Assembly: GCA_963780895.1 (NCBI GenBank)
Contig: CAWAEG010000001.1
Span: 522,179-586,178 of the forward strand
DNA: 64,000 bases
Direction of reading: 5' to 3'
Source: an uncultured Acidobacteriota bacterium
Lineage (GTDB): Bacteria; Acidobacteriota; Vicinamibacteria; Vicinamibacterales; SCN-69-37
Shown here: positions 51,544-56,349 of the stretch, one piece after another
Position numbering within the stretch: position 1 is the first letter of the stretch
How the letters are laid out: each line of letters begins with the position of its first letter
The notes under the pieces: generated by a model
What the model was told of the DNA's origin: nothing
What the model saw: the letters and a program-made list of their open reading frames with translations, nothing else
Database searches by the model: none
Translations under genes and position numbers: made by a program

Positions 51544-52935
51544 TCAATTGCGCTCGAGGCGCTTGAGCTTTTCGATCAACGTCGTCCGCTTGACGTTGAG
51601 CAGCTCGGCGGCTTGCCGCTTGTTGCCGCCGGTCCGCTCGAGCGCGCGGCGGATCAGGTTGTGCTCGAAGTCCGACACGAGCCGGTCCATCTGGATGCCG
51701 ACCTCCGGGAAGATGAAGTCGCCGGTTTGAACGGGCGCCCTCGCGTGCCGGATCTCGTCCGGCAGATCGATGGCGCCGAGCTGCGCGCGGCCCGGCGACA
51801 GCGCGAACGTCCGTTCCATCACGTTCTCGAGCTGGCGGACGTTGCCCGGCCACGCGAACGCCATCAGCGCCTGCTGCGCGTCCTGCGCGAGCGTCACGCG
51901 ACTGCGCGGCGGCACCGCCGCTTTGGCCAGGTCGTCGAGAAAATGCTGCGCGAGGATCGGGATGTCCGCCCGCCGCTCGCGAAGCGCGGGCATGCGCACC
52001 GGGATGACGTTCAGACGGTAGAAGAGGTCTTCGCGAAACACGCCATCGTCGACCATCTTTCGCAGGTCACCGTTGGTCGCGGCGATGACGCGGACGTCCA
52101 CCTTGATCGTCTGCGAGTCGCCGACGCGCTCGAATTCACGGGCCTGAATCACGCGCAGGAGCTTCGCCTGCAGGGCCGGGCTCATCGTCCCGATTTCGTC
52201 GAGGAACAGCGTGCCCCGGTGCGCCTGCTCGATCCGTCCCTGGCGATTGGCGACCGCGCCCGTGAACGCGCCCCGCACGTGGCCGAAGAGCTCGCCTTCG
52301 AGCAGGGTCTCCGGAATCGCGCTGCAGTTGATCGCCACGAAGCGTTGATTGCGCCGCATGCTGGCGTCGTGGATGCCTCGTGCCGCGAGCTCCTTTCCCG
52401 TGCCCGTCTCGCCCGTGACGAGCACCGTGCTCGACGTGGCAGCGACGGTCTTCAACAGCTCGAAGAGCTCGAGCATCACCGGCGTCCGGCCGATGATCCC
52501 GTCGAGACGAAAGCGATCGTGAAGCTGCGCGCGGAGGTACGCGTTTTCCGCCTTCAGCCGTCGCTTCTCGATCGCCGTGGTCAGCTCATGGAGCAGCTCT
52601 TCGAACTGAAAGGGCTTGGTGATGAATCCCTCGACGCCGAGGCGGGTGACCTCGACGGCCTCGCGAACCGTTCCAAAACCGGTGATGACGATCGCGATGA
52701 TCTCGGGATACCTGGCGAAGGCTTCGTCAAGAATCCGACGTCCATCGACGCCCGGCAGGCGGAGGTCGGTTACAAGAATGTCGAAGGCGAAGTCGTTCAG
52801 GCGATCGAGCGCCTGTTCGCCGGTCGCAGCCTGTTCGACTCGGAACCCATGATCGACGAGGCGCTCGGCCATTGCCTCTCGAAATCCGCCTTCATCGTCT
52901 ACAAGCAGCAGATGTTGCAGAGGAATCTCGCCCAT
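51544..52935 (-). CDS. Sigma-54-dependent response regulator (REC + AAA+ + Fis-type HTH, NtrC family)
   Basis: LLLVDDEGGFREAMAERL...ILVTDLRLPGVDG (receiver). VTGETGTGKELAARGIH, GAFTGA and ESELFGH-like ELFGHVRGAFTGA are present. The C-terminus is ...GGNKRQAAELLNVKRTTLIEKLKRL. Confidence 0.92.
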   Translation of the reverse strand: MGEIPLQHLLLVDDEGGFREAMAERLVDHGFRVEQAATGEQALDRLNDFAFDILVTDLRLPGVDGRRILDEAFARYPEIIAIVITGFGTVREAVEVTRLGVEGFITKPFQFEELLHELTTAIEKRRLKAENAYLRAQLHDRFRLDGIIGRTPVMLELFELLKTVAATSSTVLVTGETGTGKELAARGIHDASMRRNQRFVAINCSAIPETLLEGELFGHVRGAFTGAVANRQGRIEQAHRGTLFLDEIGTMSPALQAKLLRVIQAREFERVGDSQTIKVDVRVIAATNGDLRKMVDDGVFREDLFYRLNVIPVRMPALRERRADIPILAQHFLDDLAKAAVPPRSRVTLAQDAQQALMAFAWPGNVRQLENVMERTFALSPGRAQLGAIDLPDEIRHARAPVQTGDFIFPEVGIQMDRLVSDFEHNLIRRALERTGGNKRQAAELLNVKRTTLIEKLKRLERN

Positions 52936-53078
52936 TTGTGTGGTGCCGGTATTTTGACACGACCTCGGGTCTCTTTTTCACGAGACTGGGGAAAAGAAAC
53001 CGGATTCGTTTTCTCGGTGCCCCGCATTACCCATCCTCCCCTAACGGTTTTTTCCGCCGACTCCGATAGTCTGAATCG

Positions 53079-53303
53079 ATGATGCCTGAACGAAAGACCG
53101 TGTCGATTCCGCGAGCCTGCGAGCTCGTCGGGGTGAGCCGCCGGACCATCTATAACTGGCTGGCGGGCGGGAAAGTCGAATACGTGCGAACGGCCGGCGG
53201 ATCGGTCCGGATTTTTGCCGACACGCTCTGGCGCGAGCCCGGCGGAACACAGCAGGCGCCACCCAGCGTCGAGTGGAATGATCGGCTTCGCCGCGGTGCC
53301 TGA
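53079..53303 (+). CDS. Excisionase/MerR-like helix-turn-helix DNA-binding protein (74 aa)
   Basis: SIPRACELVGVSRRTIYNWLAGGKVEYVRTAGGSVRIF. Confidence 0.7.
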   Translation: MMPERKTVSIPRACELVGVSRRTIYNWLAGGKVEYVRTAGGSVRIFADTLWREPGGTQQAPPSVEWNDRLRRGA

Positions 53304-53574
53304 GACGCCGACACCGACGAAACCGTCGAGACCTGTGGATTCCGCGCCCGAGTCGGATCTCTTCCGACTGTTCCATCGACTGAACAATCAGCTCGGCGTC
53401 ATTCTCGCCAACGCTGAGTTGCTGGAAAGCCGCCTCACCGACGAGACCCAACGAGCCAGAGCCAGTCAGATCGTCGCGGGGGCGGTCGATGCGATCGCGA
53501 CCGTGCAGAGTCTGAGGCGGGTCGTCGCGCCGGAAAACGAGCGGGACCCAGGGTTGAGTCCGTCGGCGGGATGA
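53278..53574 (+). CDS. Small protein consisting only of a histidine-kinase DHp-like (H-box) helix pair
   Basis: Internal Met of ORF 53215..53574: MIGFAAVPETPTPTKPSRPVDSAPESDLFRLFHRLNNQLGVILANAELLESRL...AVDAIATVQSLRRVV. The H-box resembles the HDxxNxLxxIxGxxELL type. There is no ATPase domain. It overlaps the HTH ORF by 26 nt in another frame, so a frameshifted fusion cannot be excluded. Confidence 0.55.
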   Translation: MIGFAAVPETPTPTKPSRPVDSAPESDLFRLFHRLNNQLGVILANAELLESRLTDETQRARASQIVAGAVDAIATVQSLRRVVAPENERDPGLSPSAG

Positions 53575-53737
53575 CAGTTTTGGTAGTCCTGTCAAAGGCG
53601 TGACGAGCCAAAGAGGCGTTCGCACACGATTTCACAGCACTTCACATTCACGCACTTTCTCCTAACTACAACTAAATAAGCAAGTTAGCGAAAAGTTGCG
53701 ATCCAGGCCTGGATTCGCTTTTTATTTGCTTTGGGCG

Positions 53738-54603: not shown

Positions 54604-54659
54604 GAGCTCAGCCAGAGGCTCTTGTCGGTACGACGGGTACGACGGGTCCCTGGAACATT

Positions 54660-54702
54660 CTGACGCTCGTCATCTTTTTTTGAAGAAGATGGCGGGCGTC
54701 AG
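54660..54702. terminator. Hairpin between convergent sigma-factor and kinase genes
   Basis: CTGACGC..CATCTT-TTTTTG-AAGAAGATG..GCGTCAG. Two stem segments (7 bp and 6 bp) with a T-rich loop. Confidence 0.4.
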
Positions 54703-54745
54703 TTCGTTCCACGGACCTGCCGTACCCGACGTACCGACCAGCGCT

Positions 54746-56349
54746 TTATCCGAGTGTCTCTCTCGCGATCCGGACGAGATCCCGCAACCTGAACGGCTTC
54801 GGTACCCACCTGCACCCGCTCTCCTCGAGAAACCGCTCGGCTTCGGTACCGGCGACGTCTCCCGTTACGAACACCAGCCGCCGCGCCACCTGAGGCATCG
54901 TGGCCGAGACTTCGCTGAAGAACATCATCCCGTCCACCTTCGGCATTTTCAGGTCGCAGATGATCACGTCGTAGTGCCGTTCACGCAGGCGCGCGAGCGC
55001 CTCTTCGCCGTTGGCGGCGCGATCCACCTTGAAGCCTTCGTCAGCCAGTGCCGCGGCGACCGCCTCGCCGAGCGCCAGCTCGTCTTCGACGACGAGCGCG
55101 CGGGTGCCCTTCGGCACCTCCTTGAGCGGCTGGGTGGGTCCGGCTTCGAGCAGCCGGACGTTGTCGCCGCTCACCGGCAACTCGAGCAGGAACGACGCGC
55201 CGCGGCCCCCTTCCGACCGGACGGCGAGCCGTCCGCCATGTTCCTGGGCGATGGCATACGCCACGGTGAGTCCGAGGCCGGTGCCCTTCCCGATTGCCTT
55301 GGTAGTGAAAAACGGATCGAAGATTCGCTTCTGCACGTCGTCGGGTACGCCGGGCCCATCGTCGTTCACCTCGAGGATCACGGCGTCACGTTCGGGCTCC
55401 TGCCAGGTGCGAAGGATGAGCGTGCCGCGGCCGTGTGCGTCGAGCATCGCCTGCTCGGCGTTGACGATGAGGTTCAGCAGGATCTGCTGGATCTGATGCG
55501 GATCGGCAAAGACGGGGGGAAGCCCCGCGGCCAGCGCCTCGAGGATCACGACGTGCGCGACGCGCTGCTCGTACGCCCTCAGCGCCAGCGTTTCGCGGAC
55601 CACTTGATTCAGGTCCACCGTCGTCCGGGTCGTGTGACGCTTCCGGGCGAACGTCTGCAGATTGCGCACGATCCGGGCGGCGCGCTCGGCGGCGTTGTGG
55701 ATGGCGTCGAGATCCCGGCGCGTCAGCTCGTCGAGCCGGCGGCCCGCCAGCCGCTCGGCGCAGGCAAGGATCGTCGCGAGCGGATTGTTCAGCTCGTGTG
55801 CCACACCCGACATCGTCTGGCCCAGAGCGGCCAGTTTCTCGGCTTGTGAAAGCTGGTGATAGAGGTCGCGCGACTGGTCCTGGAGCTTCCTGCGCTCCGT
55901 GACGTCGCGCATGATCGCCTCGACGTGCAGTCCGGACGGTACCGGCTTGGGCGGCGGAGGCGCTTTGCGGGTCTTCGAGGTCTTCGGCGGCGAGCCGTCT
56001 TGCGTGGGGCCGGCGCGGTGATCGGTTCAGCGCGTGCGGTGACTTCGGTCCAGATCGCCGACCCGTCGGCCCGCCGCAGCCGCAGGACGTAACCGCGGAC
56101 CTGGCCGTCGCGCGCGAGATCCTGCAGGAACTCCGTCCTGGCTTGTTCGTCCACGAACCGGTCGGAGTCCAGGGGCCGGATGTCGCCGACGGGCACGTCG
56201 GCGGCCCAGCCGAAGATCAGCCGGAGCTGGGGGTTCGCGGCGAGCGTGGTGGTGCCGTCCGGTGCGATCCGGCCGACGTACACACCTTCCTGCAGTGTTT
56301 CGAAGAGGTGGCCAAGACCTCGGGGGTCTTTTTGACGACTCAAAGACAC
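54746..56349 (-). CDS. PAS - HisKA - HATPase_c - REC hybrid sensor histidine kinase, reading frame broken between PAS and the kinase core
   Basis: ORF 55789..56349 gives a PAS-like N-terminus (...GVYVGRIAPDGTTTLAANPQLRLIFGW...GYVLRLRRADGSAIWTEVTARAEP). ORF 54746..55912 gives (SGLHVEAI)MRDVTERRKL...MSGVAHELNNPLATI...NDDGPGV...GTGLGLTVAY...ALVVEDE...IICDLKMPKVDG. The shift lies within 55935-56027. Confidence 0.85.

Follow-up and report, generated by a model that had tools for sequence, protein, structure and literature searches.

Several described regulatory systems resemble parts of a gene cluster that we analysed in an uncultured Acidobacteriota bacterium, where it spans 50.2–56.4 kb of a 64,000-nucleotide stretch (contig CAWAEG010000001.1 of GenBank assembly GCA_963780895.1; hereafter the window). 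RpoN directly controls fliA in Vibrio cholerae (PMC3439928), where a sigma-54 promoter and an NtrC-type activator (FlrA) drive a FliA-family sigma gene, as is predicted for this cluster, and auto-regulated fliA operons such as fliAZY of Escherichia coli (PMC3439928) likewise place the sigma gene downstream of a promoter of its own class. The WhiG–RsiG system of Streptomyces (PMC7005675) also involves a non-flagellar sigma-28-family factor and TAAA/CCGATA-type promoters with N16 spacing, the spacing reported for WhiG target promoters (PMC7005675), and both WhiG–RsiG and FliA–FlgM include a small helical protein that is encoded beside the sigma factor or controlled by it. The CckA–ChpT–CtrA and KinA–Spo0F–Spo0B–Spo0A pathways (PMC9981736, PMC3433190) share with the cluster a hybrid or relay architecture and a DHp-like helix pair with a conserved histidine. 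Lastly, NtrC-family sigma-54 activators are under the control of a kinase-derived protein in the NifL–NifA system (PMC12998190) and of a HisKA kinase in the CrdS–CrdA system (PMC3510030), NifL acting by binding rather than phosphotransfer (PMC12998190). The cluster described here is built from known kinds of parts; two of its proteins, a small H-box helix pair (the hairpin) and the product of gene X, belong to uncharacterised families. Comparison of related loci gives good support to its being a sigma-factor switch with two promoters, in which a sigma-54 promoter would drive a FliA/WhiG-type sigma gene and the resulting sigma factor would read a second promoter in front of an HTH_17 gene and the hairpin gene, forming a transcriptional loop.

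The window consists of chromosomal DNA of ~65% GC, and its closest relatives are metagenome-assembled genomes (MAGs) of Vicinamibacterales/Acidobacteriota. From 50.2 to 56.4 kb, it encodes a Dabb protein, X and the activator on the minus strand, the HTH_17 protein, the hairpin and the sigma factor on the plus strand, and a hybrid histidine kinase on the minus strand. The first-pass annotation of this DNA had listed five components within 5 kb, i.e., the kinase, the hairpin, the activator, a sigma-54 element and the sigma gene, all of which were recovered at or near the positions it gave; however, the kinase frame proved to be broken, and the hairpin more likely starts at GTG 53296. The HTH_17 gene, the sigma-28-type promoter, an upstream dyad, gene X and the kinase frame break had been missed.

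Domain searches agreed with the proposed identity of the activator (51544–52935, minus strand), an NtrC-type enhancer-binding protein (EBP) of REC-AAA+-Fis-type HTH build: Pfam returned REC, Sigma54_activat (with GAFTGA), AAA_lid and HTH_8, the NCBIfam matches are AtoC/NtrC-like models, and the phospho-acceptor residues can be read straight from the sequence. The product of the sigma gene (53797–54603, plus strand) carries sigma-70 regions 2, 3 (weak) and 4 and was assigned to the group-3 sigma factors of FliA/WhiG type, as annotated; TIGR02479 (FliA/WhiG) is its best NCBIfam model, although the score of 188.8 bits lies 0.8 bit below the cut-off of 189.6. With identities of 68–95% across loci, no other large protein of the module is as conserved. 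The kinase (54746–56349, minus strand) is a cytoplasmic PAS-HisKA-HATPase_c-REC protein by homology, which bears out the annotated architecture, and it scores 212 bits against the CckA models of NCBIfam. Its relatives are encoded by one open reading frame (ORF) of 453–537 aa, whereas in the window the parts lie in different frames, with HisKA-HATPase_c-REC at 54746–55912 and PAS at 55789–56349. The span of 1604 nt is no multiple of 3, the kinase frame is closed by TGA 56029–56027, and the break falls within a variable, basic PAS loop at about 55930–56027. As Dus (49106–50216) and X (about 51150) are likewise frame-split within the same 7 kb, all three being single ORFs in relatives, these breaks are read as probable indel errors of a long-read assembly rather than as pseudogenes; related long-read contigs show the same kind of gene fragmentation.

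Relatives of the module were found in 403 genomes by a scan of species-representative genomes. Arrangements were counted in the 80 best loci and in loci from protein look-ups (tblastn), wherever the contig was long enough. The cluster is co-conserved in ~80 Vicinamibacterales genomes, with the hairpin gene adjoining those of the kinase and activator. One order was found there, namely the activator on the minus strand, HTH_17, hairpin and sigma on the plus strand and the PAS kinase on the minus strand, while the genes flanking the module vary between loci; conservation of gene set and order among related genomes, on which the annotated linkage had depended, was thus borne out. A second lineage, represented by 67 loci from a metagenome scan, carries a divergent hairpin subfamily (FHTLNNQLG), and in most of its loci X, HTH_17, hairpin and sigma lie on one strand, sometimes with the activator gene convergent downstream. 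A third, permuted arrangement has sigma-HTH_17-hairpin convergent with kinase-activator, all five genes together; among the permuted loci L093–L095, the activator gene is convergent downstream of sigma-HTH_17-hairpin in each, and the kinase gene as well in L094. Across all arrangements, the HTH_17 and hairpin genes are the only ones that always stay together; the sigma gene directly adjoins them in most loci, and the kinase and activator genes are found alongside as a rule but with exceptions.

Hairpins of L090 and L093–L095 form a subfamily (P0251-like) with an extra conserved N-terminal motif, HD...LSRWLGPLSPAF, and the core FHTLNNQLGVILTYAELLEAKA. At L090, a HicB/nucleotidyltransferase-like gene comes after the HTH_17–hairpin pair instead.

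Upstream of the sigma gene, TGGCATCGCTGTTGC at 53738–53752 (TGGCAT-N5-TTGC, plus strand) is the sole match to TGGCAY-N5-TTGC in the 64-kb window, with 0.11 matches expected by chance. The form TGG[CT]A[CT]-N5-TTGC (background frequency, 0.015 per 400 nt) is present in 85/85 related loci, within an otherwise poorly conserved hairpin–sigma spacer. It is followed by a strong ribosome-binding site (RBS; GGGAGGA) and the sigma start codon (ATG 53797). A dyad, TGACAG-N11-CTGTCA (53572–53594, also readable as TGACA-N13-TGTCA), overlaps the hairpin stop codon; its distance to the −24 element downstream is 165–168 bp in the closer clade, and it is a candidate upstream activator site. The second lineage keeps the sigma-54 element in 51 of 53 loci and has a comparable dyad, TGAC[GA]-N17-[CT]GTCA, again at −168. 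Element, dyad and RBS together present what appears to be the classic anatomy of an activator-dependent sigma-54 promoter, a well-supported assignment; the phylogenetically footprinted element and the dyad upstream of it likewise speak for the earlier proposal that such a promoter drives the sigma gene. The adjacent activator presumably uses the dyad and this promoter, as their linkage suggests. However, the connection from sigma-54 to a sigma-28-type factor, which had been thought unusual, is already known from the control of fliA by RpoN in Vibrio cholerae. Two further features of the spacer were rejected: a hairpin-plus-T-run at 53698–53730 folds no better than shuffled sequences (z −1.3) and was discarded as a terminator, and for an IHF site between dyad and promoter we make no claim, given that the A/T-rich block AATAAnCAAnTTA common to four loci misfits WATCAANNNNTTR.

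The second promoter precedes the HTH_17 gene (53079–53303, plus strand), which encodes a 74-aa excisionase-type/MerR-like protein matching Pfam HTH_17 and the NCBIfam ‘excise’ model. This gene is present in every locus and has 4822 homologues, of which those listed measure ~72–75 aa. CCGATA occurs 5′ of it in 85/85 loci, preceded by CTAAAG at a fixed distance, and CTAAAG-N16-CCGATA matches the sigma-28/WhiG consensus; the copy in the window (53041–53070, plus strand) consists of a CTAACG −35 element at 53041–53046, N16 and the −10 element CCGATAGT at 53063–53070. When a position weight matrix (PWM) was built from the conserved sites, it found only one match in the window (21.4 bits vs. a null maximum of 16.3), and 76 of its 78 matches over 870 kb of related loci fell at the position 5′ of HTH_17. 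No further sigma-28-type promoters that could define a regulon turned up with the PWM, either across the window or within the 10-kb flanks examined in relatives. Since a promoter of the TAAA-N15/16-GCCGATAA type stands beside the sigma gene in 85/85 loci of the first lineage and 48/50 of the second, we infer that the module's own sigma factor reads it.

Both small genes appear to be expressed together. The hairpin start overlaps the HTH_17 stop in 102/139 loci (by 4 nt in 64, 1 nt in 23 and 11 nt in 15), and the two proteins are therefore regarded as products of a translationally coupled operon. In the window, the start codon that overlaps the HTH_17 stop is GTG 53296, which is more likely to be the hairpin start than ATG 53278 and gives a gene at 53296–53574 (plus strand) encoding 92 aa instead of 98 aa. 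The operon would most simply be read by the module's own sigma factor. A scan of the plus strand between the hairpin and sigma genes found no intrinsic terminator, so that read-through into the sigma gene is probable.

The hairpin itself is a genuine protein and not the tail of a larger gene. A homology search returned 7624 sequences at E ≤ 0.01, the top 120 all being 69–163 aa long, and an exhaustive profile search of 1.84 billion representatives returned 314 at E ≤ 0.001, the best 150 all being 53–182 aa long. The hairpin represents a discrete small-protein family (median length of 85 aa in 227 members) rather than the tail of kinases. Its 58-codon core differs from close relatives by 24–25 synonymous and 4–5 non-synonymous codon changes, and variability at the three codon positions is 0.19/0.12/0.43, which identifies, at the level of sequence, a family under purifying selection.

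As the first-pass annotation had described, the protein is a DHp-like helix pair with an H-box. The AlphaFold2 (AF2) model shows structure only in residues 25–83, with helices at 25–52 and 56–83 (pLDDT ~95). The core, FHRLNNQLGVILANAELLE in the window, contains the essentially invariant stretch FHRLNNQLGxILAxAELLE, and its histidine (residue 33 in the 98-aa numbering) is invariant in the family alignment. In 25 of 28 members, His33 fell in line with the phospho-histidine of HisKA (profile position 11), albeit below threshold. It also pairs with H39 in the adjacent kinase, at 42% identity over 48 aa (E 3e-5), and hhalign gives this match a probability of 91.7%. In HisKA kinases, an acidic residue at H+1 is essential to kinase activity but not to phosphatase activity, and the reverse holds for Thr/Asn at H+4 (PMC3510030). 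Among the 227 hairpin members, H+1 is R/Q/K/T and acidic (E) in one only, H+4 is Asn in 226, and H+5 is Gln, never Pro. Judging from these residues, the hairpin has shed the autokinase features (the H+1 acid, the H+5 Pro and the ATP-binding domain) and kept the receiver-directed ones (the His and the H+4 Asn). We propose that it arose from an NtrB-type DHp domain and dimerises as an H-box helix pair. No resemblance to Hpt proteins was found: Pfam Hpt (PF01627) gave no match at E ≤ 10, the histidine is followed by RLNN vs. HxxKG in Hpt, and no Hpt domain is annotated in any neighbourhood inspected.

From these observations, the following course of events can be proposed, in which the pairing of proteins with binding sites, the phosphoryl chemistry as a whole and the positive or negative sense of the feedback are our inferences. 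The soluble PAS hybrid kinase would control phosphorylation of the NtrC-type activator, and the phosphorylated activator would bind the dyad ~166 bp upstream and open the sigma-54 promoter of the FliA/WhiG-type sigma gene. The sigma factor would then read the CTAAAG-N16-CCGATA promoter before the coupled HTH_17 and hairpin genes, with transcription probably continuing into the sigma gene itself. The hairpin would dock on the receiver domains of the pathway and move or remove their phosphoryl group. Docking is suggested by the NtrB-type H-box and by the retention of residues for receiver chemistry together with the loss of those for autokinase activity, and the RECs of kinase and activator are 35% identical with similar alpha-1 helices. 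Being driven by a sigma-28-type promoter and coupled to HTH_17, the hairpin is an output of the cascade and not a constitutive relay step, and its net effect would therefore be feedback on the activator. Docking on receivers with feedback of either sign is the explanation to which we give most weight, as a plausible but tentative one. Taken alone, negative feedback, by a phosphatase activity or by back-transfer into the kinase REC as a sink, is rather unlikely, and positive feedback, i.e., a forward His-Asp-His-Asp relay via the hairpin, is a more doubtful proposition.

Several results weigh against this explanation. Against Pfam HisKA (PF00512), the hairpin reaches 15.1 bits, short of the gathering threshold of 26.9, and the best member has an E-value of 0.0039. 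A profile search of the PDB with the hairpin alignment gave no match at E ≤ 1, and Foldseek returned only generic helical hairpins, including the DHp domains of ZraS, GacS and ERS1, none of them significant. Helix 1 of the hairpin is almost invariant while the alpha-1 helices of the receivers vary, and co-evolution of the kinase–regulator type is therefore not seen; changes at H+12 and H+19 that could reflect covariation with the kinase DHp or REC follow clades and are inseparable from phylogeny. Many second-lineage loci have no hybrid kinase within 6 kb of the HTH_17-hairpin-sigma trio, and many have neither kinase nor activator over that distance. Furthermore, the tightest genetic partner of the hairpin is HTH_17, by virtue of the start/stop overlap, and a role confined to receivers leaves this coupling unexplained.

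The first-pass annotation had read the cluster as a possible phosphorelay through the hairpin, a reading that was supported in part. Passage of phosphate found no support, the hairpin is made as an output of the cascade, and the trio persists where no hybrid kinase lies within 6 kb. The kinase REC carries FVTGD in place of the FATGUY marker of intermediary RECs, which is neither clearly that motif nor clearly not, and the source paper itself calls the motif unresolved (PMC9981736). A forward relay is possible; receiver feedback or an anti-sigma role fits equally well. The wiring of the cluster is real, and a phosphate relay through the hairpin is hypothetical. As with ChpT and Spo0B, a protein of this kind is encoded beside a REC-fused kinase and a terminal regulator, and no Hpt is involved. 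However, ChpT and Spo0B have a second, CA-like domain, whereas the hairpin consists of a bare ~60 structured residues and, at 92–98 aa, has no C-terminal CA-like alpha/beta domain. Unlike them, it also lacks an acidic H+1 and shares a sigma-28-type promoter with an HTH gene; its relay role is a prediction. Similarly, NifL is a large multi-domain protein and CrdS a complete kinase, whereas here the helix pair stands alone.

A DHp dimer on its own can act on a regulator. Domain A of EnvZ, as reportedly found by Park, Saha and Inouye in 1998 and by Zhu, Qin and Inouye in 2000, is phosphorylated in trans, passes the phosphate to the regulator and dephosphorylates the regulator. These are the activities proposed for the hairpin; however, domain A is an engineered fragment with a canonical acidic H+1, whereas the hairpin is a natural stand-alone gene.

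Among the alternatives, an anti-sigma or partner-switch role fares best, and we regard it as unlikely but worth serious consideration. The hairpin would bind the adjacent FliA/WhiG-type sigma factor and be made, like flgM, from a sigma-dependent promoter, with the internal sigma-54 promoter raising sigma without raising its inhibitor; in an extended form, a phosphorylated receiver would capture the DHp-like hairpin and thereby free sigma. There are precedents in RsbW and SpoIIAB, which are kinase-derived anti-sigma factors of group-3 sigma factors, and in NepR, a small two-helix anti-sigma factor controlled by a receiver protein. HTH_17-hairpin-sigma forms a contiguous core in all three arrangements, even without kinase or activator within 6 kb, the hairpin gene adjoins the sigma gene and sits under a sigma-28-type promoter, and the invariance of helix 1 fits the position of sigma as the most conserved of the large proteins. 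Anti-sigma factors built as helical hairpins exist, RsiG being an antiparallel coiled coil (PMC7005675). However, the hairpin showed no Pfam similarity to FlgM, NepR or other anti-sigma families at E ≤ 10, and unlike RsiG and FlgM, to which it bears no sequence similarity, it has an H-box. The c-di-GMP motif of RsiG, ExxxSxxRxxxQxxxD, was found in 0/85 loci, the hairpin is translationally coupled to HTH_17 and not to sigma, and the invariance of the His, the Asn and the whole H-box would be left unexplained.

The coupling to HTH_17 would be accounted for if the hairpin were a dimerisation or regulatory subunit of that protein, with a hairpin dimer holding two monomeric winged-helix domains to give a dyad-binding regulator. 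Such a regulator could act, e.g., at the TGACA dyad or at sigma-dependent promoters, and the H-box would be either a remnant or a regulatory site. The unbroken HTH_17–hairpin linkage, the start/stop overlap in most loci, the position of the dyad over the hairpin stop codon and the lack of a dimerisation element in HTH_17, a DNA-binding domain of ~72 aa, are all in keeping with this role. However, apparent fusions of the two proteins turned out to be artefacts of indel-ridden long-read contigs: P0141 and P0152 come from contigs that also carry broken activator and kinase genes, and P0012 was rejected for its garbled H-box. The conservation of the H-box is again left unexplained, and we judge this role improbable.

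The hairpin might also be a His-phosphorylatable, DHp-mimicking partner-switch protein that serves as the terminal acceptor of a His-Asp-His path, so that its phosphorylation, or its capture by a phosphorylated receiver, would decide whether it holds sigma or HTH_17. This possibility strikes us as quite improbable. If true, it would couple two-component signalling directly to the availability of a sigma factor via a stand-alone H-box helix pair, and X would be a further component of the switch. Least probable is that the hairpin inhibits the hybrid kinase through a mixed four-helix bundle with its DHp, as RetS does with GacS, turning the input off once sigma is made: helix 1 resembles that of the kinase and the GacS DHp of the RetS–GacS complex is among the fold matches (rmsd 1.3 Å over 56 residues), but that match is not significant, helix 2 is unlike that of the kinase, hhalign aligns 30 columns only, and second-lineage loci often lack an adjacent kinase.

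Vicinamibacterales are abundant in soil and their regulation is almost unstudied. The module is present in at least 403 species-level genomes, and neither its hairpin family nor its X family matches any Pfam or NCBIfam model or any solved structure. Because its promoter logic can be read from comparative data, every step is testable. Should the hairpin handle phosphoryl groups, as receiver docking would have it, no smaller natural module with histidine phosphotransfer or phosphatase activity would be known, and it would exemplify the reduction of a kinase domain to a helix pair; should it be an anti-sigma factor or an HTH partner, an H-box would have been recruited for a new use. In either case, the locus shows the wiring of a non-flagellar sigma-28-type factor in Acidobacteria. 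The claim that no flagellar genes occur in the window was corroborated, as none were seen among the ten large window ORFs scanned or among the listed neighbours of relatives. In this absence and in a sigma factor just under the FliA/WhiG cut-off, the module is unlike flagellar hierarchies, and HTH_17, hairpin and X have no counterpart in those that run from sigma-54 to sigma-28. A small DNA-binding protein would be co-expressed with the sigma factor here, as FliZ is with FliA in Escherichia coli.

Gene X (50555–51536, minus strand) is conserved, lies directly 3′ of the activator gene and adjoins it in 66/74 loci. All of its 358 homologues are annotated as hypothetical, neither Pfam nor NCBIfam gave a match, and a fold search with the AF2 model (pLDDT 82) found none in the PDB. 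The protein begins with a beta/alpha domain and carries the motif WRPGGxHxDPRxRF...RDQKRARFK, which is invariant; its basic tail ends in GPKRDR and differs widely in length between homologues. Within X, a tandem repeat at 50729–51143 (48 bp × 8.6 copies, 90% matches) encodes a Gly/Lys/Pro-rich unit of 16 aa, GKSGGWGARKPGGPGA; the reading frame of X changes in the window. A gene for a Dabb protein (stress-responsive A/B barrel; 50196–50558, minus strand) comes next after X, on the same strand as the activator gene, in many relatives, though not all.

At the other end of the activator gene, 13 nt from its start codon, the element GGTATTTTGACAC (52948–52960) is kept in 73/82 Vicinamibacterales loci and is not present in second-lineage loci. 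It has a TGACA half-site in common with the dyad and could be the activator's own promoter or an operator. Rfam gave no match in 50000–57000. Just 5′ of the kinase gene, small PCYCGC-domain ORFs were seen in the window (56537–56700, minus strand) and in relatives, including L007 (9048–9485).

Regarding the wider surroundings, a GAF-GAF-SpoIIE (PP2C) phosphatase is encoded at 61016–62860 (plus strand), and such a gene is found again within a few kb of the module across two lineages (L004, 10567–12255; L101, 5375–7105). SpoIIE-type (PP2C) phosphatases typically provide the input to partner switching that controls group-3 sigma factors; neither a STAS nor an RsbW-like gene was seen nearby. The module lies ~30 kb from dnaA, which belongs to a replication-origin neighbourhood at 19611–29152 that also includes dnaN, yidC, mnmE and mnmG (gidA). 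Beside it, an ORF of 1760 aa (14316–19598, minus strand) combines GyrB domains (HATPase_c, DNA_gyraseB and Toprim) with GyrA domains (DNA_topoisoIV and six C-terminal repeats), and represents either a gyrB–gyrA fusion or two genes joined by a stop codon lost through an indel.

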